From Botryllus schlosseri (Eukaryota): a stretch of 64,000 nucleotides of DNA. The notes under the pieces are model-generated. The model worked only from the letters and a program-made list of their open reading frames with translations. It ran no database searches and was not told where the DNA came from. This document shows positions 6,634 through 44,869 of this stretch, piece by piece. The position numbers and the translations under genes are program-made. The stretch covers positions 32,428,001-32,492,000 of the forward strand of contig CM119371.1 in assembly GCA_051294905.1 (NCBI GenBank), written 5' to 3'. Position 1 is the first letter of the stretch. Every line of letters begins with the position of its first letter.

Positions 6634-9203
6634 TAGGGTGGAGTGAAAAATGAAAATTTTTGAATTTCAAAAAAAGGTCTTGATATGTGGTGCCAAATAG
6701 TAAACAATTAAATTCTATCATAATTTTGGGTTCGTACACCCTCTAGTGGTCATGCAATTCCACCGAACGAGCCAAAAGCAGCTAATTTCGCCATATCTTG
6801 ATCATCACTTACGCTAGAAAGTCAGTATTGGGCTTAAAAGATGCAGAAGCAACATGTTTCTATCTCACTTCCATAGAACTTACTCTTAAAAATGAACAGA
6901 AAAAAAGTTACAAGCAAATTTCTCATTTTATAGGTAAAATTAAGCACTGAAGCAGTGGGTAGGATGGTGTAGTGATTGATCTTATGACTGAGCAACATAC
7001 CCTATCAATTATAACCACTTTTCAAAACTTGCTCAAACAAATGAAACCCCCTCCAAGCATAAATAGGGCTTGGGCATCAAATAGAGACTGCTAAAACTGT
7101 ATTTAAAACAGCGTCCATTGGTAGTGCAGCGTCACGATATCGGTAAGTTTATAACAACGGCCCGCATGAGATTTCTTACTAAAATGCTGCCGTAGGGTTT
7201 GTATCATATTTGTCACAAAGCTCCTGAATGAAAGCACAAAAATTGAAAATACACATTCAAGACACAAACATCAATTCTATACTGGAAACAGAAATTTTTT
7301 GTAGCAGTATCATATGAGTATCAGTGTGCACAAACATTAAAATCATGTTTAGTATTGAAAGATTTCATCTGCTTTCAAGACTCCAGTTTTCGTCTGATGA
7401 GACTATCTCTACGTTTAAATCCTGAAAGATTGTGCAGATGCTTATATCACCACTGTCACATGTCTTTCCGCTTCCTGGTTATGGCAAGGATAACTGAGCC
7501 TTAATGGTGATGATCGTAGGTTTCCCAGTTCTTGATCAGACAAGGTCTTGATTGCGATGCAGGCGGCTGCTCAATATTTTTGAGGTTGAAGTTGACAATT
7601 TGGTGGAAAGATTAAGCCTTGATGTTGATAACTGGAATTTGGAAGAATCTGATGCTGGTGTCAATGTTGCTGCTTTAGGGTTTGGTTTCATTTATATACC
7701 TCCTTCAAAGTCGTCAATTGGAACCAGATCTGCAATATTTAGAGGCTGGCCCATCGTTCATGCAATATGGTTGACTCTTTCATCTCAAATTCCAAAGTAC
7801 TATGTGGGACAGAGTCGTCCATCGAGAAATCTGAACTGTCTTGCTCAATGCTGCATGGAGGTTGATTTTCCGTTATGGTTTGAAATAAAAATGCACAGCT
7901 CCATTGTAGATGGTGCTAAAAATTTCCACAATATAGTTTCCCGTGTCACAAAGCTGACTGATACCCGAATTCACTCCCTTGCACTATCTTTGCTACGAAG
8001 AAATGCTCATTTTGAACATCCAGAAAATATTTTGCTGTGTATGCTTTGGTGACGAGGAAGGAAACGTCCGAAGATTTACAGTTAACAAGATTACAGCTAT
8101 GCGCAGAACAACCACACCATACCAAATTCCAATTATGAATTTGAAGGAAGATATATAAATAACACCAAACCTAAAAACAGCGACATTGAGCATCAGTTTC
8201 TTCAAAATTCCAGTTATCAACATCAAGGCTTAATCTTTCCACCAAATTGTCAACTTAAACCACAAAGATATTGAACACCCGCCTGCAATCACGACCTTGT
8301 CAGATGTCGAGGTGGAAAACCTAGGATCATCACCATTAGGGCTCAGTCATCCTTGCCACAACCAGGCAGTGGAAAGACATTAAAACGTGGTTACTGTAGC
8401 ATCTACCCATGTTTCAGTATTTAAACGTAGAGATAGACTCATCAGACGAAAACTGGAGTCTTGAAAGCAGATGAAATCTTTCCATACTAAACATGATTTT
8501 AATGTTTGTGCACACTGATACTCATATGATACTGCTACAAAAATTTTCTGTTCAATTGATGTTTGTGTTTTGAATGTGTATGTTCAATTTTTGTGCTTTC
8601 ATTCAGGAGCTTTGTGACAAATATGATACAAACCCTATGACAGCATTTTGGTAAGAAATCTCATGAGGGCCGTTGTTATAAACTTACCGATATCGTGATG
8701 CTGCACTACCAATGGACGCTGTTTTAAATACAGTTTAGCAGTCTCTGTTTGATGCCCGAGCCCTATTTATGCTTGGAGGGGGTTTCATTTGTTTGAGCAA
8801 GTTTTAAAAAGTGGTTATAATTGATAGGGTATGTTGCTCAGTCATAAGATCGATCACTACACGCTTTTGACATCCTACCCACTGCTCCAGTGCTTAATTT
8901 TACCTATAAAATGAGAAATTTGCTTGTAACTTTTTTTCTGTTCATTTTTAAGAGTACGTTCTATTGAAGTGAGGTAGAAACATGTTGCTTCTGCATCTTT
9001 TAAGCCCAAAACTGACTTTCTAGTGTAAGTGATGATCAAGATATGGCAAAATTAGCTGTTTTTGGCTCGTTCGGTGAAATTGCACGACCACTAGAGGGTG
9101 TACGAACCCAAAATTATGATGGAATTTTTTTGTTTACTATTTGGCACCACATGTCACGACCCTTTTTTGAAATTCAAAAATTTTCATTTTTCACTCCACC
9201 CTA
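6634..9203. mobile_element. Palindromic non-autonomous hATm-type element with ~1.1-kb inverted arms
   Basis: Termini TAGGGTGGAGTG / CACTCCACCCTA with perfect 8-bp TSD ATATATAA. The arms ~6634-7730 and ~8120-9203 are inverted repeats. Confidence 0.9.
7750..8519 (+). pseudogene. C-terminal fragment of a hATm-type transposase
   Basis: Motifs HAIWLT, PLWFEIK, RNAHFEHPENILLCML and HPCHNQAVERH..RD.LIR, interrupted by stops and frameshifts. An inverted second copy of the 3' part sits in the left arm. Confidence 0.7.
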
Positions 9204-17618: not shown

Positions 17619-17969
17619 CATTACGGTGTAAGACTGTTCACATGCTGGTAGCCACAGTGAAAATTAAAGGGGAGGGGAAAGGAAACATTGTTCTATTAGA
17701 TGACATCACTGTATATTGCACTGTGAAGAACACATAAAATGACCATGTGTACTATTGACTGGGAGAGACCAAAGCCCGTTTTCTATATTTTCCCGTGACT
17801 TGGAGTTACTTTCCATTCTGAAGAAAATCACTTGAGTCACTTTTTGGATTGATTAGACTTCTACTCGAGTTATTGCGCATGACTAGAGACATTACATATG
17901 TCCTTATTTAATTCATCTCATATTTTAATAGACCGTGTCTGGTGTCTCAATTTTCTTCTAATGATCTAG

Positions 17970-19490
17970 CGATACAATCATAAATGTGATATATGTTGGA
18001 AAGCATTTACTCGAAAAGAGAATCTCAAGCTTCACAAGGATATGCATGCTGGTGTCAAAAACCAAAAGTGTGATGTATGTGGAAAGACATTCACTAAGAA
18101 GAATAACCTCAAGACTCATATGAATATACATTCTGGCCGCAAAAATCATAAATGCGATGTATGTGGGAAAGGATTTACTCGGAAGGATAGCGTGAAGCTT
18201 CATATGGAAATACATGCTGATAGAAAAATTCATGAATGTGATATATGTGGTAAAGCATTTACACAAAAATATGGCGTCAAGCTTCATATGAAGATACATA
18301 TTGGCGTCAAAAATCATAAATGTGATATATGTGGGAAAGCATTTACTGCTGAGGTTAATCTCGAGAGTCATAAGGATATGCACGCTGGTGTGAAAAAGCA
18401 AAGATGCGATGTATGTGGAAAGGCCTTCTTTACGAAGAATAACCTCAAGACGCATATGAATGTACATGCTGGCGTGAAAAATCATAAGTGCGGTATATGT
18501 GGAAAAGCATTTACTCGGAAAGGTAGCGTCGAGATTCATATGAAAATACATTCTGGCATCAAAGAACATGAATGTGATATATGTGGGAAATCATTTTCAC
18601 AGAAAGGTAGCGCCAAGATTCATATAAATAGACATCTTGGCATCAAAAACTATAATTGTGATATATGTGGCAAAGCATTTATTCATCAGAATCGTCTCGA
18701 GCGTCATATGGGTATGCATGCCGGTGTCAAAAACCATAAATGTGATATATGTGGGAAAGCGTTCAGACTGAATGGTGGACTCAAAAATCATATGGGTACT
18801 CATGCTGACGTCAAAGACCAAAAATGCGATATTTGTGGAAAAGCATTCAGTCTAAAGAGTAAAGTCAAGCTTCATATGGATATGCATTTTGATATGAAAA
18901 ACCATGAATGTGATATCTGTGGTAAAGCATTCAGTCTGAAGCGGAACCTCAAGATTCATGTGAATAGGCATTTTGCCATGAAAAATCACGAGTGTGATAT
19001 ATGTGGGAAAACATTCACTCATACGATCGAACTCAAGTGGCATATGGAGATCCATACTAGCATCAAAAATCGAAACTATGACTGTCCCATATGTGGTAGA
19101 GCATTTACTCGGAAGAGTTGCCTCAACGTTCACATGGATGTGCATGCTGGTATCAAAAAGCATAAATGTGATATATGTGGGAAGGAAGTTACTGGAAAAA
19201 GTAACCTCAAGCTACATTACGCTGCACATGTCGGAATCAAAAATCACAAATGTGAATTATGTGGGAAAGCATTCAGCTGGAAGCTCGACCTCGGCCGTCA
19301 TATGGATATGCATGCCGGCATCAAAGTTCATGGATGTGATATATGTGGGAAAGCATTTACTAAAAAGGATCACCTCAAGATTCATATGAATATGCATTTT
19401 GACATCAAAAACTATCAGTGTGGTATATGCGCGAAAGCATTTAGTAATCCGGGTAACCTTGTGCAGCATCTGAACATCCATGCAAAATAG
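17970..19490 (+). CDS. Tandem C2H2 zinc-finger protein, probable terminal exon (18 fingers)
   Basis: The 482-aa ORF has 17 CxxC-x12-HxxxH fingers. The frame extends upstream through one more finger (RYNHKCDICWKAFTRKENLKLHKDMH) to a pyrimidine tract plus AG at 17968-17969, a likely splice acceptor. Confidence 0.9.
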   Translation, partial: RYNHKCDICWKAFTRKENLKLHKDMHAGVKNQKCDVCGKTFTKKNNLKTHMNIHSGRKNHKCDVCGKGFTRKDSVKLHMEIHADRKIHECDICGKAFTQKYGVKLHMKIHIGVKNHKCDICGKAFTAEVNLESHKDMHAGVKKQRCDVCGKAFFTKNNLKTHMNVHAGVKNHKCGICGKAFTRKGSVEIHMKIHSGIKEHECDICGKSFSQKGSAKIHINRHLGIKNYNCDICGKAFIHQNRLERHMGMHAGVKNHKCDICGKAFRLNGGLKNHMGTHADVKDQKCDICGKAFSLKSKVKLHMDMHFDMKNHECDICGKAFSLKRNLKIHVNRHFAMKNHECDICGKTFTHTIELKWHMEIHTSIKNRNYDCPICGRAFTRKSCLNVHMDVHAGIKKHKCDICGKEVTGKSNLKLHYAAHVGIKNHKCELCGKAFSWKLDLGRHMDMHAGIKVHGCDICGKAFTKKDHLKIHMNMHFDIKNYQCGICAKAFSNPGNLVQHLNIHAK

Positions 19491-19938
19491 TAGACGTATA
19501 TACAATGGGAAGTCTACCCACCTTCAATGCTATTATTTCAAATCAAAAATATTGTATAATTAAATTTTTTTTCATCTCCAATAGCTTCGCTTCCAAAAGT
19601 GGAAGTCGAGCAAAATTTGATGTGCAGCGATATTTTCAGTCAACCACACAAGTAAAATTTGAATGAAAACTCCATTTTTGAACGACCCTAACATGCATGC
19701 TGTGGAAAAAACTATAGCCGGAATATTTGTCTGAAAGAATTAATTCATTTAAAATAATTTAACCGCCATATTACTATTCATTTTTCACAGCCACCAAAAA
19801 TTTTACTAATTTGCTCTTCAGAGTCCACCTAACATAAACGCATTTTCTTGCGTTATTTTTGAATTGTCACAGGTCTTCAAATTCCTATGATTGAATGCCC
19901 AGTGCTATTCCCATATACAGTTGCAGTAGACACTAGAC

Positions 19939-22008: not shown

Positions 22009-23109
22009 CAGGGGTGGGCAAACTACGGCCCGCAAGAGTCAAAAGAAACTTCTTAAAAATATTGATAAAATGCGTACTAAAATCGAATTAATGCAGAGAC
22101 TTGAAAAACCTTTTTCTTGGTATATTTCCCCACGATAATCCAAAGGCAGTGGTTGTCAAACTGAAGGCGAGCCCCTATTGGCGGCGTGAAAGCATCTGAA
22201 GGGGGCGCGAAGCTGAGCTCAACTTTAATTTTCTTCGCGCTTCGCGCGATTTGCATACAGATCATGAGTATTAATCTGTAGTTAGTCAGAATTTCATATT
22301 TAAAAATCTCTCATCCGCAGTGGTTGCGTTTTGTGATATGACGATAAGAGGGGGGATGCGAAGTCTTTCACCATCATAAAGGGGCGTGTCTTAAAAAGTT
22401 TGAGAGCAACTGTTCTTAGGTAAATACCTGCTTTTTTACTTTTTATGTTCAATTTCTGGCGCGACAGCTCGATCTCAGGGCCCGAGCAGTTTGAAAGGTT
22501 TCAACTGCTAAAACATCACAGAAATCCCAAACGAGATTGACATAATTCGGATAACGGGTGTGATTTCAGTTTGGCCACTCAGTTTTAATTATTTCAGTGA
22601 TGTGCATGATATAAAAACGAATAGCGCGTGTCTTCGTTCTCTGTATGCGTAGAATTGGTGTATTTATATTTTATCTACACACAGTAGAAGCGTGTGTGAA
22701 GCTAACATTGTTATGATGCTGTCAGCATTGTGTGTCCTGGAACTGTACCAACAGTGGTATTAGTAAATACATGAACAGATTGCTGCTCAGTGCTCACAGA
22801 TTCAAATTTCAATCCTGTTTTAAGAATTGGGAGTTGGGACAACCGACTTTCATCTCTATAGTTTTAACAAATTGGTTATTGAGGTCGACCAGCGTATGAA
22901 ATCTCGCCACTGTTTCTGACGCGTGTACGGTATCATCAAAGCAATGTTTCGTTTTTCTAAATAAGCTTATATATTATCTCCATGTCATCACTATATAATC
23001 AAATAACAATATTGTGTTTTGGTGTATAATCCGAATTTTATGGGTGCGGCCCGCGAATGGATTCAGATGTTGAATGCGGCCCGCGAGCTCAAAAGTTTGC
23101 CCACCTCTG
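22009..23109 (-). mobile_element. Composite hAT MITE, copy 2
   Basis: Same family as 3152-4246 in reverse orientation, with perfect TSD TTTTAGTA. Confidence 0.92.
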
Positions 23110-24258
23110 TTTTAGTAACACACAAATTGCTTTGAATTCACGATAAGGCTCATCCAATATTGGTTTATCTGGAGAACAGTGTCGGGGACGGTTGGGATGC
23201 TTTAGTGTAGTGCTGTGCAACTTGCTGGCGTGGGACTATGAGACACTGGCATTTCGAGGCCAACCCCTTCCACGCCAGAAGAAATGAAGTTTGAGCCGAC
23301 GTACGTCTTGGTCAAGTGCGATGCCAAAACGATCGGCGTCGATAAAACCTTGACCACAAATGACCGCCCGTGGTTGGCCTTGAACACTGATAGGTCTGGT
23401 CATCGAAATGGTGGGCACCAAATAGTCCCGTCGTTGCAATCTGAGTAGAAAGTAGCACAAATGCGATCCGAAGAGGAAAGTAATGCACCCCAATTCGATA
23501 TCGTGTTCGTCAGAAATGTTTCTTAGCTGCGTTTCGTACAACTGTTGTCTGCGCGTTCTCTATGTTCTACATAGCACACTAATAATAACAATGCATTCCT
23601 TTTGGTGCACGAGGCTTGGGTCGCGAGATGCTACTAAAACTCAGATGCGGGTTGCGGTCTAAAAAGTTCAAGAACCTCTGTCATAGATCAGGATTTCTGT
23701 AAGTTTTTTTTTGTTCTAAATAATAGCAACCTTCCGCACACTCGACGAGTGGATTTTGACTATACTCGAGTGGTCGCGTAGTCTGTAATTATCGCCAAAG
23801 TCGAATGATTTAGGGGTGCATGAGCCTGCGAATTTCCTGCAAGCGGTCTGTGAATAGAAATACGTGCCATTATGTTGATGAATGTCAGTGATTATGGCTG
23901 TAACCATACAGGGCTCTGGAGTCGGAGTTTCGCTCATTTGACTTTGATAGAGTCGGAGTCTCTTTTAAGCATGACTTGGAGTCGGGTCGGAGTTTGTAAA
24001 ATGCTCTCGACTCCGTCCTCTTTAATATTTCTTCAATATGTAAAACAAGTGCTTTCAAAGTTCTCTTAAAATTGCTAATAATGAATAAAATAGGATTTGT
24101 GTGTATGTACCAACAATCATAGTTATTAGAAACTATTGATAAAACTGGACATTTATTGCAAATTGCAATTCAATTGGTTATAGAGGAAAAAGTTGCAACA
24201 AAATCTCGACCAACACAAAACTACTGATACAGTCACAAATTGGTTAAATTTTCGGAAT

Positions 24259-24701
24259 TGTAAATGTCTGTCCCGATTCCGTTGTGCGCGAAAGCGTAAA
24301 TAGGTCACTCTCGAAGCCACGAGCTGTGACGGCACAGTTAGTCTACGACGCACGTGTTCTCAGAGCCCGCATATGGAGGTCGGCGCGCTGGCGCGGCAGA
24401 CGTAAGATAGACAATTGGCTCCATTTCGCTTCATTTATTCTTTCTATTTCTTATTGAACCGCAGTATCATTGAACCTGGTAAATCTACAAGTTTCTGACC
24501 ACTAATTACTACTATTTGGCTGTTCTGTGCTAGTAAAGAAAGCTCCTTGGATCTGCGTGTGTGATCAGGATTGCAAGAGTACTCAGAGCGGTCATTAGTC
24601 AGTCAACTAGTGCGTGCAACGGGAACTGTAGCTGTAGCGTCGACTCCGATCAAGCATTATACCAGCGTGTCTTGCAACAAGTCGTTGCAGCGACCGCTAC
24701 A
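24259..24701 (+). repeat. 5' LTR
   Basis: TGTAAATG...CGCTACA, a direct repeat of 29153-29595. Candidate poly(A) signal AGTAAA at 24532-24537. Confidence 0.96.
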
Positions 24702-24742
24702 GTCAGAAACTTTACCAGCCATAAAGTTGAAAGTCGGAAAAG

Positions 24743-27649
24743 TTGAAAATAATGGAAGCTGAAGCAACGTCGGAGATAGCTGACGGCTCAGCCGTACAAA
24801 GTCAAACTGTGGCAACGTCAGGGAGTGCTGACTGCCCAGTTCCACCAAGTCCAGAGAATGTTAAAGATGAACGTGGAAGTGTCAAGAAAGAAATTGTGGA
24901 CCAGATCCCCGCGAAGAGCAAGTCAGTGGGTTCTGATGTTCCAACCAGTAGTGACGGCACTTTCCATGGATTCGATCAGAGATTGATTGAACTTGAACGT
25001 CAGTTCCGTGAAACAGAAAGAGATGTTAAAAGTCGCATCGAAGTGGTTGTGGATATTATAACGCAATCAGCGAATAAAGAAGAAGTAAGGGAAGCAATGA
25101 AAGGTGTTTCTTCCTACAGAGACGAATTGCGGAAAATTACCGGAGAAATTACTTCCAAGTACGCCGAAAATACGGAAACAAAGGACTTCACCAAAAGTCT
25201 GAGGTTGGTTGAAATGAAAATTGAGAAAGTTCAGCAAACCGTTATGGACTTCATGATGCTTCCATCCGAAAATGGATCCGTATGTAGCCGCGCGAGATCT
25301 GGAGCCGGCTCGAGATCGAGTCGCCATACACAACACAGTCGCACCAGCCTCGCCAGCAACAAAGAGCTACGTCATACGAGAATAAGGGAAGCAGCCGCTC
25401 TGGAAGCGAAACTGGAATTTTCAGAGCAAGAAGCTGAAATGAAGAAAAAGTTGTCGCAATTGGCTCTGAAGAGTCAAATTGCTGAAAAACGAGCCGAGAT
25501 CAAGGCTTGTGAGCAAATTGAAAAGGAGGAGAACCCCTTTGGTCTGGATGAAGATACCCAGTGTGTTGGATCTAACTTCGCAGAAATACAGAATAGCGTT
25601 CCGGTTTTGGATTCGGGAGACAAGGTAAAAAACTTTGTTTTAAGTGACTCTCATGACCGTCCCGAAGTAAGGCCATCTACTGTCAAATTTACGGAACCTA
25701 AAACACCAACGTTAGTTATTGATAAATCTCCCCCAATGAACCATGTCTCGTGTGTCGAACCGCAAGTAATTGAACAAAAACTGTTTGTGCCGAGTCCTAA
25801 ACCGCCCACCGATCATTCCATGCTTATACCAAGTGAACATCATTACAATGTAAGACCTAGGACGCGAATACCCGATATAAAAGTTTGGGTTTTTGATGGT
25901 GATGAAACCAACTATATAGAGTGGGAAAATTCGTTCAAGGCTTTGGTGGAAGATAGAGTCTGCTGTGTCAATGAGAAGATGAATTTGTTGAAACAGCATC
26001 TTGGTCCCAACCCGTTGAAAGTTGTTAAAAGTCATTTTTTGAATGGTACGGAGGAATCCTACCAAAAAGCAATCGGAGACTTGCGAGACAGGTATGGAAG
26101 CCCTGTTGTCATTGGCCAAACCTTCCTGAATAGACTGCGTGCTTGGCGCTACATAAAGGAATATGACAAACTTGGCCTGCGTGAATTCTCTGATTTTTTG
26201 GAGCAAGTAGTAGTCAACAAGCATTATGTATCAGAGTTGGGCATTCTTGATTACTCGTCAAGTCATATGTACATAGTGAAGAAGTTACCTCCGTCACTAG
26301 TCGAGAAGTGGCGTGTTAAAGTGTCGCAATACAAAGTGGAAACGAATGATAAAAATTGCTACCCGCCCTTTGAGTATTTCGTGTCATTTGTAAGAGATCA
26401 GTCAGAGCTTCAAAACATGCCGGAATTCAGAATGCTTAATGAAGACCGACATAGTAACGTCACTCATTCCGCTCAAAAGATTCCACGTGATAAGCCAAGT
26501 GTGTCATTCGGAACTAATGTGAAGCCAGATGAGTTCGACTGCATCTTTTGTAAAAAGAAAGGCCATCATATCCCGGATTGTGTTGATTTCGGGAAGTTGC
26601 CCTTCAATGAGCGGAAATCGTTTATGTACGACAAGTTTTTATGTTATGGGTGTGGAGAAAAGTGTAGTAGATCCCACAAGGGGCAAGACTGTACCAAGCG
26701 TGTGGTTTGCAAGACATGCGGCAAGTTTCATTTAACCAGCCTCCATTTGAGTTCTGCTTCTGGTGTTTCAAATTGCATTCAAGTCTGTGAGTCGGAAACC
26801 ATGGAAATCGATAATACCATGCTGGTGCCGGTCTGGGTTAATCCCAAGTCGGATCCCACGAAGATTACCCTTTGTTACGCTGCATTGGACTCGTTAAGTA
26901 ACCGTTCTTTTGTTACGGAAGAGATAAAGAGTGAGCTTCGTCTGAATAGTCAATCCACACATGTCGAATTGTCTACAATGAGCGGAAAGGATGCATGGCC
27001 TATTGAGAAAGTTTGGAACCTCGAAGTTACATCTTATGACAAGAAGAAGAGTGTCAACGTAGCACAAGCGTATGTCAGAGATGAGATACCCGCGAACAGA
27101 ACACAGATTCCTAAAGCGTCCGCATGCAAAGAGTGGGCTCACCTCCAGAAGGTAGCAGATGAGTTGCCTCCTTATCTACCGAATGCAAAAGTCGGCATCT
27201 TGCTGGGAAGTGATGTGGTCGCAGCCCTAATCCCTCGTGAGGTGGTAGCTGGGGGAGATAACGAGCCGTTTGCTATGAAGACAGACTTGGGATGGGGTGT
27301 TGTGGGTAAAATCTGTAAAGGCGTTGATCCTAACAATGCTATATGTCATAGGATCATCGTGCAAGAAATGAACAATGACGCTAACATCGTATTAGCGTCT
27401 CGAGCAAAAGAGATAATCAACCCGAACGCCGTGAAGAACATGTTCGAATTGGAGTTCGCCGAGCATAAAGGAAAGTTATCGTCGCTCTCCGTAGAAGATC
27501 GAAGATTCCTGCAGATGATTTCAGACGGGATAAAGCAGCGTCCAGACAAGCACTACGAAATGCCTCTCCCGCTTCGAGACGAGACTGTCGATATTCCCAA
27601 CAACAAATCGTTCGTTTTGAAAAGGACTGCCCAACTTGATTGGAATTGA
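24743..27649 (+). CDS. BEL/Pao Gag plus aspartic protease, truncated just before RT
   Basis: Coiled coil; FDGDETNYIEWENSF..L Gag core; three Cys/His knuckles (CIFCKKKGHHIPDC, CYGC..H..C, CKTCGKFHLTSLH); protease YAALDSLS, ILLGSD, KTDLGW; then YEMPLP..PNNK and an abrupt stop. First ATG is near 24752. Confidence 0.92.
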   Translation: MKIMEAEATSEIADGSAVQSQTVATSGSADCPVPPSPENVKDERGSVKKEIVDQIPAKSKSVGSDVPTSSDGTFHGFDQRLIELERQFRETERDVKSRIEVVVDIITQSANKEEVREAMKGVSSYRDELRKITGEITSKYAENTETKDFTKSLRLVEMKIEKVQQTVMDFMMLPSENGSVCSRARSGAGSRSSRHTQHSRTSLASNKELRHTRIREAAALEAKLEFSEQEAEMKKKLSQLALKSQIAEKRAEIKACEQIEKEENPFGLDEDTQCVGSNFAEIQNSVPVLDSGDKVKNFVLSDSHDRPEVRPSTVKFTEPKTPTLVIDKSPPMNHVSCVEPQVIEQKLFVPSPKPPTDHSMLIPSEHHYNVRPRTRIPDIKVWVFDGDETNYIEWENSFKALVEDRVCCVNEKMNLLKQHLGPNPLKVVKSHFLNGTEESYQKAIGDLRDRYGSPVVIGQTFLNRLRAWRYIKEYDKLGLREFSDFLEQVVVNKHYVSELGILDYSSSHMYIVKKLPPSLVEKWRVKVSQYKVETNDKNCYPPFEYFVSFVRDQSELQNMPEFRMLNEDRHSNVTHSAQKIPRDKPSVSFGTNVKPDEFDCIFCKKKGHHIPDCVDFGKLPFNERKSFMYDKFLCYGCGEKCSRSHKGQDCTKRVVCKTCGKFHLTSLHLSSASGVSNCIQVCESETMEIDNTMLVPVWVNPKSDPTKITLCYAALDSLSNRSFVTEEIKSELRLNSQSTHVELSTMSGKDAWPIEKVWNLEVTSYDKKKSVNVAQAYVRDEIPANRTQIPKASACKEWAHLQKVADELPPYLPNAKVGILLGSDVVAALIPREVVAGGDNEPFAMKTDLGWGVVGKICKGVDPNNAICHRIIVQEMNNDANIVLASRAKEIINPNAVKNMFELEFAEHKGKLSSLSVEDRRFLQMISDGIKQRPDKHYEMPLPLRDETVDIPNNKSFVLKRTAQLDWN

Positions 27650-28932
27650 GCGCTGCTGTTGTGTCGTCGCGGATGAGTCGGTTTCTTCGCGACGAGTTGA
27701 AGTATGAGAATGTTGTTGAATATTTCTGGGTTGATTCCATGGTAGTTTTAGGCTACATCAAAAATGAGGCAAAGCGGTTTCACGCGTATGTCGCAAATCG
27801 AGTCCAGACAATCCATGACCATACCAATGTGGATTCATGGTACTACGTGCCTTCTGCACAAAACCCGAGTGATGATGCCAGTAGAGGTATCCCTGTGAGT
27901 GATTTTAATGCAAAATGTCGTTGGTTGTGTGGCCCTAGTTTCCTGCATGTCGTGGGTCCCTTTGCGGCCCCTGAGTCCACCTTTGAACCGTGCGATGTCT
28001 TTGGTATATACTACGTGAAAGAGAAGCGATCTACTCTGAAGCGTTATTGTGTTTTGTTTACTTGTTTGTCGTCCCGTGCTATCCATTTGGAATCGTTGAA
28101 TGCTATGACCACTGATTCCTTCATCAATGCCCTCCGCAGAATGTTGGCCCGTAGAGGTCCTATGAAGCAACTGAGATGTGACTGTGGCACAAATTTTGTC
28201 GGCGCTAGTAATGAGCTGAAAAAAGCTGCTTTGAAATTGAACCAAACTAAAGTGAAAAACTTCTTGTTGAATGAGCATTGCGATTTTATTGAATTCAACT
28301 TTGCCGTTCCCCATGCTAGTCACATGTCAGGAGCAGTCGAAAGACAAATCCGAACCGTGAAGGCTGCTCTTAATCCTTTGTTGCTGAAATTTGGTCATAT
28401 CTTGTGTGATGAGTCTTACCGTACCTTTCTTACCGAAGTTGAGAATATTGTAAATTCAAGACCGTTGTGTGTGCAAAATTTGAATGACCCATCAGCGCCA
28501 ATCCCATTGTCCCCTCAGCATATTCTCACATTGAAGTCTAAGGTTTTATTGCCTCCACCAGGAGTATTTCAAAAATGTGATATATATTTGGTCAAGAGAT
28601 GGCGCAGGGTTCAGTACCTTGCCAATGAGTTTTGGAGTAAATGGAAACGTGAGTATTTGAGCTCACTGCAAAATCGAAGTAAATGGAATGATGTCAAACG
28701 GGACTTCAAACCCGGCGATATTGTTTTAATTTCCGACCCTAATCAGCCCCGGAATTCTTGGAAACTTGGCCGAGTTGAGGTTGTCACGCCAAGTGGTGAT
28801 GGGCACATTCGGAAAGCAACTGTGTTAGTTGCGACAACGGAGCTTGATGCAAAGGGTAGACGCACTGCTTCTTCCACTTATGTTGACCGCCCCATTCACA
28901 AGTTGGTGCTTTTGATATCAGTCGATTCTTGA
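27640..28932 (+). CDS. BEL/Pao RNase H C-terminal part fused in frame to the integrase core and C-terminal domain
   Basis: LELSAAV, FWVDS..VLGYI, YVANRV, NPSDDASRG and WLCGPSFL, followed directly by CDVFG, RCDCGTNF and GAVERQIR (D,D,E), then RWRRVQYLANEFW and DRPIHKL. Confidence 0.88.
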   Translation: MELSAAVVSSRMSRFLRDELKYENVVEYFWVDSMVVLGYIKNEAKRFHAYVANRVQTIHDHTNVDSWYYVPSAQNPSDDASRGIPVSDFNAKCRWLCGPSFLHVVGPFAAPESTFEPCDVFGIYYVKEKRSTLKRYCVLFTCLSSRAIHLESLNAMTTDSFINALRRMLARRGPMKQLRCDCGTNFVGASNELKKAALKLNQTKVKNFLLNEHCDFIEFNFAVPHASHMSGAVERQIRTVKAALNPLLLKFGHILCDESYRTFLTEVENIVNSRPLCVQNLNDPSAPIPLSPQHILTLKSKVLLPPPGVFQKCDIYLVKRWRRVQYLANEFWSKWKREYLSSLQNRSKWNDVKRDFKPGDIVLISDPNQPRNSWKLGRVEVVTPSGDGHIRKATVLVATTELDAKGRRTASSTYVDRPIHKLVLLISVDS

Positions 28933-29152
28933 TTGTCTGTTTTTCGCTGTGTGATATGAGTGAATCTCGTTATTTTTTTGTCGTTGTTATTGTTATTTGT
29001 TTCGTACATACTTGAGACCATTTGGATCTCTCGTACTCTATGTGTTATCAGTGTAGTCCGATTTCCCGAAGTGGAGCCACATTGTTTACACGTTTGCAAA
29101 AATGGTTGTAAAGACATTTTATGTTGCACAAAAATGTCCTTAAAAGGGGGAG

Positions 29153-29595
29153 TGTAAATGTCTGTCCCGATTCCGTTGTGCGCGAAAGCGTAAATAGGTC
29201 ACTCTCGAAGCCACGAGCTGTGACGGCACAGTTAGTCTACGACGCACGTGTTCTCAGAGCCCGCATATGGAGGTCGGCGCGCTGGCGCGGCAGACGTAAG
29301 ATAGACAATTGGCTCCATTTCGCTTCATTTATTCTTTCTATTTCTTATTGAACCGCAGTATCATTGAACCTGGTAAATCTACAAGTTTCTGACCACTAAT
29401 TACTACTATTTGGCTGTTCTGTGCTAGTAAAGAAAGCTCCTTGGATCTGCGTGTGTGATCAGGATTGCAAGAGTACTCAGAGCGGTCATTAGTCAGTCAA
29501 CTAGTGCGTGCAACGGGAACTGTAGCTGTAGCGTCGACTCCGATCAAGCATTATACCAGCGTGTCTTGCAACAAGTCGTTGCAGCGACCGCTACA
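29153..29595 (+). repeat. 3' LTR
   Basis: Follows the polypurine tract and is followed by TSD GGAAT. Confidence 0.96.
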
Positions 29596-31147
29596 GGAAT
29601 TATACAACTGATTATATGATTACATGATTACATCACTTGTAACAGTGATGAAAATAGTACCAACACTGCTCCATGAGGAAATTAGTCGGAGGCTGAGTCC
29701 GAGTCGCTAAATTTAATAACGCTGGAGTCGGAATTGTCATCAAGTCTATTGAAAATGTCTGGAATCAAAGTCGGAGTTGCAGTCGGTGGTAAAAGTTACC
29801 GACTCCACATCCACAGTCCTGGCTGTAACTGCCGCGTTCCAAACTCCCCGCTTTGAAAGAGGCAGAAATATATTGTAAATGAACATAAAGTGAAGGTATT
29901 TAACTACTTATCCATGCGATTTGGTGTCACTATGTTTATTGTTGGTAAACATCCGCTTTGAAAAAAAAAACTGTGTTAGCAATCATGAGATCTGGTAATG
30001 TTCCTAATATATCGTGCTGCTCGAGGGCGCGGTCTGTTACTAAATGAAGGACTTAACCAACATGCTTTTGCATTGCTGCGTGACTAATAAATGAGCTCTT
30101 ACATTATTACACGTTATTCGACTTAGCTAGATTGACAGTCATAAATACAACAATTTTATGGGGTTGGTTGTAGTGGCGTAGCAGCATGTGCTGCCGCCCG
30201 TGGCTTTTGATGAAAATGCCGCCCAATAAGCACACCGCAGCAAATTTCGACATAGCTCACTTTTCAACACTCTTCAATAAAAAAAATAATTACAAATAAT
30301 ATGCGCTGTATCAGAAGTTCTATATATTGCTTTAGAAAGAAGCCTCACCGTCTCAGCGTTTGTAAGGCGAAAAACAAAAATGACATGAAATGGAGAACGA
30401 ATGTATTAGTCCAGGGGCGGCCAACCCGTCGCCCGCGAGAAGATTTTGAGTGGCTGGCGAAATAATTCGCGAAATTAGCTGTAATATTAAATAATAAGTA
30501 TTCCATGTAATTTATTACGGTTAGATATATCGTCTGCTATCGACGCAACAAAGTATGTAATTTATTGTGAATTTGCAAGGCCAACCAAAAATTTGATAAA
30601 CTTTACAGCGAAATTTGGGTTGGTAATGACTTGAGCATCATTTCCGACGCAATGACGTAGCCAGGGGCCAGCCAGATTTTTCATAAGATCTTCGTATATG
30701 ATCATAAAGTAGAATATTTCATAGCAGATTTATTTGACTTGAAATTTTTATTAGCACTCAGCGCGATTTATTGTCACTCAATTTCCTGCTTTTAGTACCC
30801 CCTCCTGAAAATTTACCGAATTTAGTCTGACAATACTCGCAATTATAAGAGAACGTGTCGTCCAACATCCGACTTCGCATCTGCATTTGCAGAAAGATGA
30901 TAGGTGATGATGAAACCTTTGCACAAAATGATAGCGCCGAATACTCCTGTCCTTGTCAAATGAGCCTAGCGGCATACAGAGGCGACCCGCAATATATACA
31001 AGTGACATAGGTATTGACAGAACTCATTCATTAACTTACAAAAATGTTAGCGCTTGGCGCGGTTAGTTCACGAGTGCACTATGCACGCTGACTTTTCACG
31101 ACATAATTGTTATCGATTTCGATGCGTAGTAATATACGTCTTGTTGC

Positions 31148-35512: not shown

Positions 35513-36684
35513 CAGGGGTGGGCAAACTACGGCCTACTGGCCGCATGCGGCCCGCCACACCGTTCTGTGCGGCCCGCGAGAGTCTGAAGAAACCTATTAG
35601 AAATATTGATATAATGCGTCCTAAAATTCGAATTAATGCTAGGACTTGATTAAACTATTTCTTAGTATATTTCACCATGATAATTCTAAGGCAGTGGTTC
35701 TCAAACTGGAGGCGTGAAAGCATCAGAAGGGGGCGCAAAGCTGAGCACGACTGAAAAAAATTTTCGCGCTCAGCGCGATTTACATCCAATTCATAGTTAG
35801 TGCTCTATATTTAGTCTGGATTTCATATTTAAAAATCTCTCATTCACAGTCGCAACCTTCCATACCATCAAACTATCCGTTTGGTTTGCTAGCATCCAAG
35901 TCGCGTTTTGTGATATGGCGGTAAGGTGCGCGCGAAATCTTTCACCATCATAAAGGGAGGGGGTGTCCTAAAAGTTTGAGAACCACTGTTCTAAGGTAAA
36001 TACTTCCTATATCATTTTTTATGTTTCATTTCTGGCACGACAGTCCGATTTCAAGGACCAGGCATTTTGAAAGGTTTCAACTGCTAAACATCACAGAAAT
36101 CCTAAACGAGATTGACATAATTCGGATCACGAGTGTGATTTCAGATTGACCACTCCAGTTTTATTTTCAATTCAGTAATGTGCGTATAAAAGACGATTCT
36201 CGCGTGTCTTAGGTAGATTCGTTATCTGTAAGCGTAGAATTAGGGCATTTATATTTTCTTTACACACTGTAGAAGTGGTCTGAAGCTAACAAGGTTATGA
36301 TGCTGTCAGCATTGCATGTCCTGGAACGGAACGAAAAGTGGAATTAGTAAATCTATGAACAGATCGCTGCTCACAGATTTAAATTTCAATCCTGTTCTAA
36401 GAATCGGGACAACCGACTTACATCTGTATGATTTTGACAAATTGTTTATTGAGGTCGACCAGCCTATGAAATCTCGCCACTGTTTCTGACGAGTGTACGA
36501 TAACAACAACGAAGTAATGTTTGGTTTGTTTTAAATAAGCATATACATTATCTCCATGTCCTCACTATATATTCAAATAAAAATATTACGTTTTGGTTTA
36601 TGATCCCAATTTTATATAGTGCGGCCCGCGAATGGATTGAGATGTTGAATGCGGCCCGCGAGCTCAAAATTTTGCCCACCCCTG
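35513..36684 (-). mobile_element. Composite hAT MITE, copy 3
   Basis: Perfect TSD CGGTAAGC. The inner MITE 35692-35988 has its own perfect TSD TTCTAAGG. Confidence 0.93.
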
Positions 36685-38577: not shown

Positions 38578-39429
38578 TTATCAATGACTTAAGGCATCCA
38601 CACATTGAGCAAACACGTGCAGTGCAGTTATGCACCATACGTTTCTGTGACTTCATTCTACGCTCAGCTTGTTCCGACGCGGCACTGAAATCAATGAGTG
38701 GCACTTTATCAGGTGTCGGGATCCTGTCTGCTACACACTAAATCTGGCAATCTGGGTACTAAGCAAGCGTTGCGTATCTCAAATCTCTTCTGTTTCAAAT
38801 ACAAGCAGTCCAAAACATACGATACGGAATAGCTTGTTCAGAAATAGATACGTTAAATGGCGAGATTCGCAAGATTGCTTGCTCGTCCGATAGCAGTCGA
38901 AATAGAGAATGAAACAACAGCAACAGTGAAATATAAAGGAAAACGAGAACGGACGGCGCAACAATTAAATTAACCAATCATCAAATCAAACCAGAGCAAT
39001 TAAGAGTTGTCGTGGAGAATAACGGAATGCAAATAAGGGACGGTAACTAAAAACATGACTCGTCAAAACACAGGTAAGATGAGTGTTCTTGAGATCAAAA
39101 ATGTCTGAATCTCAAATACTTCAGATATTCAGTGCTAAACCAGCTAACAGAACCCATATGTGTAAAAATATCTGTAATATTCACTCACGTTACAAGAACT
39201 GCCGCAGAGACTTTATTAAGGGTCCAAAGGTCGAAGCGGCTAGATGCGAAAGACACAGGAACAACACAAGTCATCACTACTATAACAGGGAGCAGTATAG
39301 AGCACGGCTGTCACATATCAACTGAAATTGTACATGTGAATATCACAAAGCATTTTATCACACGTCAATGAATTTACGTCAGGAAATATTGGAGAACAAA
39401 ATTCAATAATTGGACAGAGATGATTTTTT

Positions 39430-39940
39430 TTCAGATACATGAATGTAATACATGTTAACGAGTTCACCCTTGGAGTAACCCTTCGCAGTATATGCTCTCA
39501 CCCGTACATTTCATCCATGATTGTTGATGCCAGTATGGACGTTCATATGTCACCGGAGGCGATTCTTCTGAGTAAACGCTCTCCCACATAAATCACATTT
39601 ATGATTTTTGATGCCAGCATGTATATACAAATGAAGCTTGAGGTCACCTTTCTGATAAAATGGTTTTCCACATTCATCACACTCATGAATTTTTCTGTCA
39701 GCATGTATTTCCATATGACGCTTCATGCCACCCTTCTGAGTAAATGCTTGCCCGCATACACCGCATTTATGATTTTTGATGCTAGCATGTATATTAATAT
39801 GACGCTTGCGGTATATTTTATGATTGAATACCATTCCACACACATCACATGTTTGTTTTTTGACACCAGCATGCATATCCATAGGGCGCTTGAAGCTGTC
39901 CTTCCAAGTAAATGCTTTTCCACATACACCACATTTATGT
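39430..39940 (-). pseudogene. Out-of-frame, decaying C2H2 finger tail
   Basis: Fingers continue after the frameshift. One has His to Pro (FKRPMDMH), there is a TGA at 39550-39552 inside a finger, and a further degenerate finger follows. Confidence 0.8.
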
Positions 39941-42121
39941 TTTTTTCACGCCAGCATGCATATTCATATGACACTTGAGGTGAGCCTTCTGAGTAAATGC
40001 TTTCCCACATACATCACATCCATGATCTTTGATGCCAGCATGGATATTCATATGAAGCTTGAGGCCACCCTTCTGAGTAAATACTTTCCCACATACATCA
40101 CATCCATGATCTTTGATGCCAGCATGGATATTCATATGAACCCTGAGGCTTTTCATCTGGGCTAATGTCTTCCCACATACATCACATTTAATACCTTTGC
40201 TGCCAATATGCGTTTTCATATGACAATTGTGATGAATCTTTCTAATGAATGCTTTCCCACATATCTCACATTGATGTTTTTTAACGCCATCATGAGTATT
40301 CATATGAAGTTGAAGGCAACGGTTACTAGTAAATGCTTTATCACATACATCACATATATGATTTTTGATGCCAGCATGCATTTTCATATGAAGCTTGAGG
40401 CCACCCTTCTGAGTAAATGCTTTCCCACATACATCACATTCATGATCTTTGATGCCAGCATGGATATTCATATGTGGCGTGAGTTCATGTTTACAAGTAA
40501 ATGCTTTTCCACATATACCACACTCATGTTTTTTGATGCCTGCGTGCATCTTCATATGAACCCTGAGGCTTTTCATCTGGGCTAATGTCTTCCCACATAC
40601 ATCACATTTAATACCTTTGCTGCCAATATGCGTTTTCATATGACAATTGTGATCAATCTTCCTAATGAATGCTTTCTCACATATCTCACATTGATGTTTT
40701 TTGACGCCATCATGAGTATTCATATGAAGTTTAAGGCAACGGGTACTAGTAAATGCTTTATCACATACATCACATTTACGATTTTTGATGCCGGAATGCA
40801 TCTCCATATGAATATTGAGTTCATTCTTCCTCAAAAATGGTTTACCACAAACATCACATTCATGATTTTTGACACCAGCATGCATATCCATATGAAGGTT
40901 GAGGTGGGCCTTCTGAGTGAATGCTTTCCCACATACATCACATGCATGGTTTTTGATGCCAGCATGCCTATTCATATGTTGCCCGAGGTTATGTTTAAGA
41001 GTAAATGCTTTTCCGCATACATAACATTTATGTATTTTGACGCCAGCATGCATATACATATGAGACTTGAGGCAAGCCTTCCTAGTAAATGCCTTCCCAC
41101 ATACATCACATTCATGATTTTTATTGCCAGCATGCATATCCATGTGACACTTGAGGTGAATCTTCTGAGTAAATGCTTTCCCACACACCTCACATTCGTG
41201 ATTTCTGATGCCAGCATGGATACTCACATGTTTCCTGAGGGCATTTTTCCGAGAGAATGCTTTTCCGCATACATCACATTTATGATTATCGATGCCTGAA
41301 TGCATATCCATATGAGCATTGATTTCAGCCGTTCTGATAAATGTTTTACCACATACATCGCATTCGCGATTTTTGATGCCTGAATGCATCTCCATATGAA
41401 CCTTGAGTTCATTCTTCCTCATAAATGGTTTATCACAAACATCACATATATGCTTTTTGACACCAGCATGCATATCCATATGAAGATTGAGGTCGCCCTT
41501 CTGGGTAAATGCTTTCCCACATACATCACATCCATGGTCTTTGATGCCAGCATGGATATTCATATGTTGCCTGAGGTAATGCTTATAAGTAAATGCTTTT
41601 CCACATATAGCACATTTATGTTTTTTGATGCCAGCGTGCATATTCATATGTTGCCTGAGGCTACTCTTCTCAGCTAATGCTTTCCCACATACATCACATT
41701 CATGATTTTTCATTCCTGCATGCATATCCATATGAAGGTTGAGGTGGGCCTTCTGAGTAAATGCTCTCCCACATACATCACATTCATGTCTTTTGACGCC
41801 AGCGTGCATATCCATATGATACTTGAGGTAGCTCTTCAGATGAAACGATTTCCCACATATACCACATTCATGACTTTTGATGCCAACATGCATATTCATA
41901 TGTCGCTTGAGGTCACCCTTCATAGTAAATGTTCTCCCACATACATCACATATATGAGTTTTGGTGTAGACGTTTCGAGAGAATTCTTTTTTGGCAACAT
42001 CGCATGGATCTTTCAAGTCGTGATGAATAGATAATTTTTCTGACTCCATGTCGCTCTTTTTATGGGAATGACAATGGTGTTTATTTATTACAGTGGTAAT
42101 AATATCTGTTTTCAAGTTCAA
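39935..42121 (-). CDS. Tandem C2H2 zinc-finger protein (24 fingers)
   Basis: 728-aa ORF of 28-aa repeats with AG[IV]K[NK]H[EK]C linkers. It ends at a frameshift in an A7 run. The true start or upstream exons are uncertain. Confidence 0.88.
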   Translation of the reverse strand: MNLKTDIITTVINKHHCHSHKKSDMESEKLSIHHDLKDPCDVAKKEFSRNVYTKTHICDVCGRTFTMKGDLKRHMNMHVGIKSHECGICGKSFHLKSYLKYHMDMHAGVKRHECDVCGRAFTQKAHLNLHMDMHAGMKNHECDVCGKALAEKSSLRQHMNMHAGIKKHKCAICGKAFTYKHYLRQHMNIHAGIKDHGCDVCGKAFTQKGDLNLHMDMHAGVKKHICDVCDKPFMRKNELKVHMEMHSGIKNRECDVCGKTFIRTAEINAHMDMHSGIDNHKCDVCGKAFSRKNALRKHVSIHAGIRNHECEVCGKAFTQKIHLKCHMDMHAGNKNHECDVCGKAFTRKACLKSHMYMHAGVKIHKCYVCGKAFTLKHNLGQHMNRHAGIKNHACDVCGKAFTQKAHLNLHMDMHAGVKNHECDVCGKPFLRKNELNIHMEMHSGIKNRKCDVCDKAFTSTRCLKLHMNTHDGVKKHQCEICEKAFIRKIDHNCHMKTHIGSKGIKCDVCGKTLAQMKSLRVHMKMHAGIKKHECGICGKAFTCKHELTPHMNIHAGIKDHECDVCGKAFTQKGGLKLHMKMHAGIKNHICDVCDKAFTSNRCLQLHMNTHDGVKKHQCEICGKAFIRKIHHNCHMKTHIGSKGIKCDVCGKTLAQMKSLRVHMNIHAGIKDHGCDVCGKVFTQKGGLKLHMNIHAGIKDHGCDVCGKAFTQKAHLKCHMNMHAGVKKT

Positions 42122-44869
42122 AGTGGTTATTACATATTTTCCACAATTTCTTCAGTGTATATACCGGTAAGTAGTTCTATGACAGCATGGCATGGTCTGA
42201 TAAATATGAAACTAGGAAAGTGTCGAACTAATCTTAATAAAGAGAAGCATTAGGCGGTAGAGAGCGCCATTGTCATGTTATTATATCTTGCAACAAAAAT
42301 AATATAACATATTTTTACAATTTGATCGGAATTAATCGAATATCATCAATACGAGCATCAGTTTGATCACTTTTGATCAAATCAAAATATAGTCACACAG
42401 TAACATTATAAAAAAGGTAATGAGAGAACACTATAAATTTTCAACAAATCACCCATCACCTGGCAGAGCAACGAAAAGCTAGGTGGTAAAGGTGCATCCG
42501 TATCGTCTGGTGTCGGGAACGTATGGCTGGCCTTCACAACGAAGATTTTATTGAAGTTCTCAATAACACGTTTCATATTCTTTCTCGGGCTCGCACAATC
42601 CATAGAATGTAATGTGTACGCTGCTTGCAGCAAATTATCTGTTTACCGTAGTCATTACACCTTCTAGCACAGAGGTCCTACAGCAGTGGTTCTCAAACTT
42701 TTTAGACAGCGACCCAAATCTGAGTTTTAGTGGCATCTCGCAACCCAAGTCTCACACATCAAAATTAATGCATCTAAAATATTGGTAAGCTATAGGTTTT
42801 TACGGGCATGTATGACATATAGAGAACGTATTACATAATTTTCGACGTGTCCACATTATGGGCTATGGTACCCAACATAATGATACCAGATATTTACTAA
42901 TTATTCGGGTGATTTTCGGGACCTAAAAACGGAAGATTTTGACCGTAAACATGAAAATGTTGACATTTTTCGACGTTAAAAAACCTAATTTTGAAAAAAT
43001 GTTGCCCTCATGTATATAAATTATGAGTTTTCACGCATAATGCTAGAATTGTACTACTCATCTTCATTTCTGGCTGGAACTGTCTGTCCTCACATCACGA
43101 AGTATGGTACAAAACTACAAATACAATTAAAATGTATTGTAGTACAACGGAAGATACTTTCCTACATTCTCGGGTAGAAAGTGTCTGTCCTTTGTAAGTA
43201 GCTTGTCAAGAGTGGAGAAAAAACGTTAAACAGCAGCAGTTGTGCGTACACTGCTGGTGAAAATCCGTGTTGCTTCAATGTTGTCTACATCGGTGGTTCT
43301 CAACCTCCCCCCCTCGCGGACAGGCAAAATTTCAAAAGATATGTGGCGGACCGGTGAACCTTGAAAATTGAAATCAACCCCAAATGTAATGTATGCAGCT
43401 GTTTTCCTGCAAGTATGGTACTGGAGCAGGCGTGGTAAACCTTTTTGCTCTTCACGGCCACATTTCGATCACTTATATGGCCTACGGCCGCATACCAGGA
43501 CACACAGTCGTGATGAACTACCTAGACGCGAAATACCCATGTCCATTACTGGTGAACTCCGGACTAATCGACTTTATGATATCGTCTTACCCTACGCGGG
43601 GAAATCACTATATAGTGCTCACGTTATGAATAGTTACTATGGGAACAATGATCTTGGCGCGCAACGGGAAAATTTTTTCAAATTCTCCAACGAAAATAGT
43701 CTCTCGTATTACTATTTATCCTTTCTCAGCCAATCTGATCAGATTCATCGGTAGAGTTGATGTAGGGAGTGTTTCCGAAAATTTTGGCAATTTATGAATG
43801 TTGATGCATCTTCGGGTGGGCCGATTGTTACTGTAGTCACTTTGTTTCGTGTTGTTATTTCTTGACCTCCCATCAGGATTGTCGGTATAGTGGAAAGACA
43901 TTGGAATCTACCAAACGTACCAGAAACAAATTTCTTTCGCGAGGAGCGTAGACCTATAGTTCCTAGATGGTGTTTCTATATGGGGTGCATCATTTTCCTC
44001 GGTTGTTCGTATCTGTACTGTGAAGCCCAGATTGCAAAGGGCGCTACGACAATATAATAATCGAAAAATGAAGTCGCATTGAATCACGCCTAACGCGAAG
44101 AAAGTTTCAAGTTTAATTGAAATATCTCCAAAAGTCGGGAGTCAACTCGCAAATTAAATTTTCATGTCGACGGCGGCCAACACATACTAATCGAATTACG
44201 TGTCCACGGTCGCACAAATTTCCTTCTGCGGCCGCAGGTTGGTCCTGTACTAAAGAATGACATTCTTTTCGTAATTAATGCATCTCTGGCTTGCACAATC
44301 GCCTCTGCATTGGCTTGGTGCTGCGGATATTGACTCTGGCCTACATAATCGCATCTGCAATAGTTCTGGTACGAAAGAGATAATCGCTGGCCTAACCATC
44401 GCGTCTGCGGGCCCAGCATGCGTTGGCTCCCACCCCTCGGATGGCTTGGTTGACAATATGCCGTTAAGTGTATTCTGATAAGTGATTGTGAGTAAAGAGT
44501 GACATCGCGAAACTGAATGACATCGAATGTTCGGAAACATGTGTGATTGTTTGTGCGTGCAAGCGTAATTAATTTCCACTAATACTTAATTCGAAAAGAA
44601 TTGAAACCCAGTCATTTTATTTCAAACACTGCCATCTTATTTTTCGGCTGGATACGCACCTGATCACGTGAATTTATCAAGGAGGGATTTGAGAGAGATA
44701 TCACGCCGTCCTCAATTCCAGTATAGGACACTATTATTCCAGTATCAGCTACCCGTCCTTCCAGTACTCCGAACCTATGCAGAAGAATGGTTCAAAAGGA
44801 ATGCGAAGTGTTTGAAGCTTCCGGCAAACGACCTGCCAACCTTTAGTCTCGCTACGAAGCGCTGATTAC

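Follow-up and report, generated by a model that had tools for sequence, protein, structure and literature searches.

A BEL/Pao retrotransposon with a candidate self-primer in place of a tRNA primer-binding site

In Tf1 of Schizosaccharomyces pombe, Levin and Lin reportedly identified the first 11 nucleotides of the element's own RNA as the primer of reverse transcription, with an RNase H cut between nucleotides 11 and 12 and with a U5-IR. Across the literature consulted, self-priming is listed only for the Tf1/sushi-type chromoviruses of Ty3/gypsy and for the TAR lineage of copia elements (PMC6934838, PMC6317226, PMC3601003). The former group includes Tf1, Tf2, Maggy, Skippy, Cft-1, Boty, Grasshopper, Afut1 and sushi-ichi as well as the Tcn1 clade in plants (PMC6934838, PMC6317226), while the TAR lineage of plant Ty1/copia (Houba, Osr-1) is predicted to self-prime (PMC6317226). 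BEL/Pao elements are described in the ICTV profile as tRNA-primed, with an 18-nt site that base-pairs with the 3' terminus of a host tRNA (PMC8742986), and the primer of the BEL/Pao element Achilles is given as tRNA-Tyr (PMC4580426). No report linking BEL/Pao with self-priming was found by full-text search of the literature outside subscription journals. The present analysis concerns a BEL/Pao element in a 64,000-nucleotide stretch of Botryllus schlosseri DNA, analysed as a whole and referred to here as the window.

The element, its transcripts and the site after its LTR

The copy in the window is a young BEL/Pao insertion that carries internal deletions; its LTRs are identical (100% over 444 bases in the alignment), and it is flanked by a GGAAT target-site duplication (Table 1). 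Pfam detects DUF1759, rve and DUF5641 in it, and comparison with a full-length copy (L031), which encodes a single 2036-aa Gag-Pol frame (P0003), shows that a second deletion has removed the integrase N-terminus. As the reverse transcriptase region and the integrase N-terminus are lost, the window copy is non-autonomous, and its internal deletions leave it copyable only with proteins from full-length copies. P0003 carries DUF1759 (388-528), RVT_1 (1054-1185), Peptidase_A17 (1247-1411, E 3e-46) and, further, Integrase_H2C2, rve and DUF5641; since these Pao-type domains stand in the full-length frame, the element is, by its Pfam domain set, a BEL/Pao (Belpaoviridae) LTR retrotransposon. The structural marks of that group, namely TG..CA LTRs, a short target duplication and a polypurine tract, are present, and only the 18-nt tRNA-complementary site is missing. 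Judged by the proteins, which still place the element in BEL/Pao, this is a departure in replication and not in descent.

Table 1. Features of the element in the window, with the intron-like inserts of related loci in the last row
Feature	Positions (strand)	Basis
Target-site duplication GGAAT	5' copy 24254..24258 (+), 3' copy 29596-29600	read in sequence
5' LTR, 443 bp, TGTAAATG...GCTACA, TG..CA ends	24259..24701 (+)	read in sequence
U3 (putative, boundary putative)	24259..24462 (+)	subfamily divergence, mismatch counts in 45 LTR copies, loose ends of reads
CAGT, initiator-like motif with candidate transcription start A24463	24462..24465 (+)	sequence and subfamily homology boundary
Upstream arm CTGGTA of second helix (partner TACCAG, 24713-24718)	24476..24481 (+)	sequence, folds, RNAduplex
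7-base bulge AATCTAC separating both helices	24482..24488 (+)	sequence
Candidate self-primer 3' segment AAGTTTCTGAC	24489..24499 (+)	sequence, shuffles, RNAduplex
Poly(A) signal variant AGTAAA	24532..24537 (+)	sequence and read depth
Predicted U5 hairpin, just 5' of primer-binding site	24664..24697 (+)	minimum-free-energy and centroid folds
Primer-binding site (PBS) GTCAGAAACTTTACCAG, 17 nt	24702..24718 (+)	sequence, copy alignment, genome search
Gag and protease part of gag-pol frame, 965 aa, ending at first internal deletion	24752..27649 (+)	comparison with full-length P0003
Rest of pol (RNase H end, integrase core, DUF5641), frame-shifted	27640..28932 (+)	ORFs, Pfam, comparison with P0003
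Polypurine tract AAAAGGGGGAG, preceding 3' LTR	29142..29152 (+)	read in sequence
3' LTR	29153..29595 (+)	sequence, LTR-pair alignment
Intron-like inserts in related loci	L105 ~518-854; L106/L107 3' LTR; L110 7001-7070; L114 ~6720-6977; L187 1502-1895; L184 ~5853-6016	

The element sits between two C2H2 zinc-finger genes, which form 84-bp tandem-unit arrays at 17958-19541 (+) and 39407-42151 (-), with ORFs of 506 and 738 aa and the Pfam domains zf-C2H2 and zf-H2C2_2. It is also flanked by two direct-repeat pairs (83% and 88% identity) spaced 13.57 kb apart (22394-22939 vs 35970-36509), which may represent an older duplication or an older repeat that received the element. At least 40 LTR matches of the family occur in the same genome (495 Mb, 219 contigs), in which other BEL/Pao elements are represented by 150 Pfam hits. 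Full-length copies measure 7.2-7.3 kb and the window copy 5.3 kb, while LTR pairs about 3.3 kb apart (C1:10198944-10202284, C10:8307907-8311197, C14:8634812-8638095, C156:951-4206) suggest a short non-autonomous derivative of the family.

The sequence abutting the 5' LTR end is GTCAGAAACTT (24702-24712), and no TGG occurs in the 50 bases from the LTR end to the gag ATG at 24752. This 11-mer has its exact reverse complement inside the LTR, at 24489-24499, and a second helix of 6 bp (TACCAG with CTGGTA) lies across a 7-base bulge. The best LTR:PBS duplex found by RNAduplex (-21.0 kcal/mol) is precisely this arrangement of 11 + 6 bp, and the primer:PBS helix is present in both the minimum-free-energy and the centroid fold of 24463-24760, a leader of unremarkable overall stability (z = -1.04). 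The hairpin predicted in U5 occupies a position which we take to be analogous to that of the U5-IR stem-loop. Among 3000 mononucleotide shuffles of the LTR, 1-2 produced a flush 11-mer, and a separate shuffle run gave 0.0005. A preliminary description of the locus had already reported the flush position and the lack of a TGG start, the exact 11-base reverse complement and 17-nt pairing across a 7-nt bulge, all of which can be read directly in the sequence and the last of which is returned by RNAduplex and the folds as well; its estimate of about 1e-4 for the chance occurrence of the 11-mer is in line with the shuffles.

The 17-base site is invariant in all 13 aligned 5' LTR copies (93-100% identity), the next two bases being variable, and the sole variant among these copies within 24476-24499 is T24486C in L011, inside the bulge. 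Of the 28 loci with the exact site, 23 carry the 11-mer (-207 to -215 relative to the LTR end); the other five comprise four 5'-truncated LTRs and one decayed copy (L042), which differs at two positions of the LTR motif but keeps the PBS unchanged. Across 45 distinct LTR copies, conservation is strong from ~24463 onward and the U3 upstream is variable, and in the alignment the divergence between LTR subfamilies climbs sharply upstream of ~24461-24463. Both sides of the pairing are invariant within the family, so that no covariation was seen among the 13 aligned 5' LTRs, the 28 loci and the 45 LTR copies. Four copies (L038, L043, L051 and L058) compared with window positions 24259-24470 have a strongly diverged or unrelated U3 and a near-identical R-U5 from ~24463, and RNA reads show one more U3 type (loose ends at 24463 and 24470); such mixing of U3 types with a common R-U5 looks like U3 exchange via recombination within R.

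Two of three RNA runs carrying the same species label, together with two contig sets, were mapped to 24000-25600, and the reads show transcription of the family. The depth of 3'-tag reads in the single-cell run X22 is 214.6 over 24432-24485, 132.7 over 24486-24539 and 12.6 over 24540-24593, and from this drop after 24539 the RNA 3' ends lie at ~24540-24560, just past AGTAAA, which itself begins 33 bases past the LTR motif. U3 and R are covered by X22 reads that have loose ends matching the sequence on the polypurine side of a 3' LTR. Since the poly(A) site lies downstream of the motif, the latter is placed as an R sequence requires; it precedes that site by about 50 bases, as would be expected of the start of R. 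No pile-up of reads marking a transcription start was flagged over 24000-25600, and a depth step at 24463 is confounded by subfamilies that have a different U3 up to that point; the homology boundary, taken with CAGT, makes A24463 a candidate start. The placement of the motif upstream of a poly(A) signal in the preliminary description agrees with the signal and the reads; its comparison with Tf1 would put the primer at the extreme 5' end of the RNA, which is improbable.

Two further read classes were observed. In the bulk RNA-seq run X24, nine reads pass the PBS by 8 bases (24718-24726) and continue into a long A run, which could stem from a short LTR-PBS RNA that is polyadenylated, or else from a genomic copy lying before an A-rich stretch. 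In X22, reads of opposite orientation pile up on U5 (24594-24703, with a depth of 48.6 in 24648-24701), 44 of them leaving at 24703 into unrelated sequence; these probably derive from a host transcript reading through a solo or 3' LTR elsewhere.

Complementarity in related families and its interruption by inserts

Because copies within the family are too alike for covariation, the comparison was made on related loci in metagenome and metagenome-assembled genome (MAG) contigs. P0003 was aligned with 19 homologues, picked from the best 120 of 3293 hits, and a contig scan followed, which gave 79 related loci (31-53% identity) in metagenome contigs and 11 in prokaryote MAG contigs, the latter evidently host contamination; neither close nor distant relatives were found in viral contigs. 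LTR ends could be fixed by LTR-pair alignment in nine families, and in none of these does TGG follow the LTR. The perfect complement that each flush site finds in its own LTR measures 11 bases in the window family, 9 in L103, 7 in L106, 11 in L121, 8 in L153, 5 in L154, 7 in L161, 4 in L184 and 5 in L187, the better LTR copy being used for L121 (3' LTR) and L153 (5' LTR), of which the other copies give at most 5 bases. Thus, six of the nine families have a flush perfect complement of 7-11 bases, with a sequence that varies between families. In the first seven, the mean is 8.29 bases with the own LTR vs 3.52 for swapped PBS/LTR pairs, and shuffle p < 0.05 was obtained in six of seven families with pair-defined ends. 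A set of 15 families gave p < 0.05 in 11, with the limit that it adds ends taken from the conserved junction ..ACA/GT (the stroke marking the boundary), which are not independent of the self-priming model; L154, L122, L170 and L117 fail the shuffle test in this set, and L154 has no complement, either contiguous or split. Control ACAGT sites elsewhere in the leaders of the relatives reach at most 7 bases.

The family-specific pairs are AGTTTTTAC with PBS GTAAAAACT, CGATGTTTTAC with GTAAAACATCG, AGTATTAC with GTAATACT, AATCGTTTGAC with GTCAAACGATT, AGTTCGAC with GTCGAACT and AGTTGAC with GTCAACT. In nine families, inspected by eye, the base past the motif is unable to pair with the last A of the LTR, so the duplex stops exactly at the U5 boundary. 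A second short upstream helix across a bulge of 2-7 bases recurs in the window family, L128, L121 and L108, and AATAAA is found about 8-45 bases after the motif in the relatives. The helix appears in the minimum-free-energy fold of five of 11 family leaders, a result counted neither for nor against the pairing. The complementarity, then, is kept across related families while its sequence changes, which lends support to the earlier suggestion that this BEL lineage may self-prime; a lack of conservation in relatives had been named there as grounds for abandoning it.

Several candidates from the same contigs were set aside. A scan of all CA/ positions in the leaders returned mostly chance 7-mers, and the 9-10-mers that it gave in L113, L154, L160, L167 and L177 are attributable to chance, being of low complexity or outside the LTR. 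The complement in L134 was rejected as its true LTR end lies elsewhere, and a pyrimidine-purine step at the 5' edge of the complement (7/10 families, by eye) was discounted because the intron data favour a start further upstream. L187 additionally contains, at 3323-8042, a nested second and unrelated LTR pair of 331 bp (TGTTGAAAAA...TTTTTCAACA).

In L105/106/107/109/110, L114 and L187, the complement is interrupted by an intron-like GT..AG insert (Table 1). Removal of the insert restores an 11-base complement. Among the nine families with pair-defined ends, two further ones gain such a complement, and a third 10 of 11 bases, in this way alone, while one family fits neither way. The L105 group reads ...AATCG/GTAAGCG...(168-171 nt)...TTTTAG/TTTGAC, and its insert-less relative L108 has AATCGTTTGAC, an exact 11-base complement of the common site; L114 reads CGATGT/GTAAGTG... 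where the insert-less L121 has its contiguous CGATGTTTTAC. L187, of the family of L122, reads AGATAT/GTAAGT...(388 nt)...TTTTCAG/TTTAC, which yields AGATATTTTAC for the site GTAAAATATCT once the insert is removed, and in L184 the removal of ~165 nt leaves a 10/11 match with one mismatch (by eye). Shuffles reached the split 11-mer in 0/1000 cases for L105, 2/1000 for L107 and 5/1000 for L187. Covariation with PBS positions 6-11 is seen in the five or six bases that precede the insert, and donors such as GTAAGT and GTGAGT are accompanied by a pyrimidine-rich tract before the AG. The GT..AG ends and pyrimidine tracts suggest that the inserts are introns; if so, the pairing would exist only in RNA, and the first exon would be longer than five bases, with the primer segment inside the 5' leader and not at its end. 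Split complements with such covariation argue for pairing at the RNA level.

A proposed route of self-priming and its alternatives

Pairing in register with the LTR end, lack of a tRNA-type site, cross-family conservation and a poly(A) site downstream of the motif are observed. With a probability of roughly 0.7, these features indicate that the BEL/Pao element starts minus-strand DNA synthesis with its own RNA and not with a host tRNA. The genomic RNA would start in the LTR, tens of bases upstream of 24489, with CAGT at 24463 as the candidate start (from a start downstream of 24499, the RNA would not include the motif of the 5' LTR), and its 5' leader would fold back so that 24489-24499, aided by 24476-24481, pairs with the site abutting U5. 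The RNase H of the element would then cut the leader after C24499, leaving a priming 3'-OH, which the reverse transcriptase would extend into U5 and R; given that the site abuts U5, the first base copied would be the last base of the LTR. Strand transfer would make use of the remaining R, from ~24500 to the poly(A) site near 24550. If, as in the retroviral scheme, the attached primer is copied in plus-strand synthesis, the site would stay matched to the primer, and such copying would explain why young copies match perfectly. The primer probably lies within the 5' leader of the RNA and does not coincide with its first 11 bases, for the second helix upstream of the motif and the introns predicted inside the motif of relatives place the RNA start tens of bases further upstream.

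A wider scenario is offered more tentatively, the odds being somewhat against it. A broad marine-invertebrate clade of BEL/Pao may have given up tRNA priming and may use as primer a segment from within the capped 5' leader of its own RNA; several lineages would gain the primer only after removal of a spliceosomal intron located in the R of the LTR, so that splicing would license reverse transcription, and intron-less sisters would originate where splicing also takes out the intron's 3' copy before copying.

An unlikely alternative is that the long-range pairing is a real structure of the leader that serves some other purpose. It might mask the site, aid packaging or dimerisation, circularise the RNA through the 3' U3/R copy, or control translation, and the true primer would then be something else, possibly a short LTR-derived RNA that acts in trans and comes from another copy. 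The same motif lies at the 3' U3/R junction of every transcript, making pairing in trans or with the 3' end sterically possible, and the use of bases upstream of the motif by the second helix would suit another role; the nine X24 reads with poly(A), which run ~8 bases past the 17-base site, hint at short LTR-PBS RNAs. Nevertheless, in every family having a duplex, it ends exactly at the U5/PBS junction, a register that primers need and other roles do not, and no alternative primer site occurs in the 50 bases before the ATG. A primer supplied in trans by the element's own RNA would, broadly, still be self-priming.

Priming at 24702-24718 by a host RNA, be it a piece from inside a tRNA, as copia uses, or a different small RNA, with an LTR complement that is incidental or regulatory, is considered improbable. 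Half-tRNA primers of the copia type are known (PMC6317226). CTGGTAAAGTTTCTGAC, read as tRNA positions 18-32, would show a GG like that of the D-loop, and its end could fall where an anticodon loop begins, and a GT[AC]AAA start of the site is common to many relatives. The reverse complement of the 17-mer, however, matches exactly in the whole 495-Mb assembly only at the element's own copies, each followed by the LTR end, and its near matches stand at or below the control level, with ~56 hits at one or two mismatches vs 81 for the control pattern; none of ten fetched near matches is a tRNA, the recurring ones belonging to another repeat family. An anticodon-arm pattern containing the 11-mer gave no exact hit in the whole assembly and 64 hits with one mismatch vs 91 for the control, and AAGTTTCTGACTCTACGTCAGC, which occurs at four places, does not fit a tRNA anticodon arm. 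Rfam gave no match over 24200-24800, and no tRNA was found within the window. Rfam tRNA scoring took in 63 of 36083 candidates, almost all of them tRNA-Lys, and ARAGORN, applied to the loci, yielded 34 distinct sequences, nearly all Lys-TTT; the tRNA comparison thus covers whole-genome patterns and part of the tRNA set, and leaves room for matches of up to 11 bases to tRNA fragments. A host tRNA matching the site, which the preliminary description had named as a competing primer, is hence absent from the whole-assembly patterns, while the tRNA set itself has been covered in part. Moreover, the sites differ strongly between related families, each matching its own LTR, which conserved tRNAs would not produce, and in three lineages the match occurs only in the predicted spliced RNA of the element.

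It is very improbable that the primer is a 3' end of the element's own RNA created by cleavage at the poly(A) site. Motif and poly(A) signal do share one part of the LTR, but 33 bases separate the end of the motif from AGTAAA, and the reads extend to ~24540-24560; in the relatives too the signal follows the motif, which places the motif upstream of the cleavage site and not at it. Chance complementarity devoid of function is scarcely credible, for although short inverted matches are common and 7-mers occur at control ACAGT sites in relatives, the shuffle p is ~0.0003-0.0007 for the window alone and is also low, independently, in the majority of related families, whose paired sequences differ and always stand in register with the LTR end.

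Comparison with described priming systems

Self-priming has so far been demonstrated in Tf1, and predictions of it exist for parts of Ty3/gypsy and Ty1/copia. On comparative support, Tf1-like self-priming appears to be new for BEL/Pao, and, if true, all three superfamilies of LTR retrotransposons have reached, or kept, this mode, which is relevant to the long-standing question whether hairpin or self-priming came before tRNA priming. A predicted intron that splits the primer within the LTR, if real, would be an unusual link of splicing to reverse transcription. In practical terms, annotation pipelines that require a tRNA site will miss or misplace such elements, and the primer/site pair provides a simple sequence signature for finding them.

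The window element resembles canonical BEL/Pao (Belpaoviridae, genus Semotivirus) in its DUF1759 Gag, Pao-type pol domains and integrase with DUF5641, as well as in its TG..CA LTRs, 5-bp duplication and polypurine tract, whereas its clade, unlike canonical members such as Achilles, is devoid of a tRNA site. With copia-type half-tRNA priming it shares a site that does not start with TGG; the copia primer, however, is an internal fragment of a host tRNA, while the present site has no host match among those searched and varies with its own LTR. The TAR lineage offers another parallel, since its self-priming is likewise deduced from sequence within a superfamily that otherwise uses tRNA (PMC6317226), although the window element belongs to a different superfamily and kingdom.

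With the Tf1/sushi group the element shares several traits: a tRNA-type site is lacking, the site flush with U5 is 11 bases long and pairs with the element's own R, the complement in R lies upstream of the poly(A) signal, a U5 hairpin is predicted beside the site, and complementarity is maintained in relatives. Unlike that of Tf1, its primer segment probably does not lie at the extreme 5' end, and some relatives have an intron-like insert inside the motif. Its Pfam domains place it in BEL/Pao and not in Ty3/gypsy or in descent from the Tf1/sushi chromoviruses; the element would therefore appear to work like Tf1 without belonging to the Tf1 lineage.
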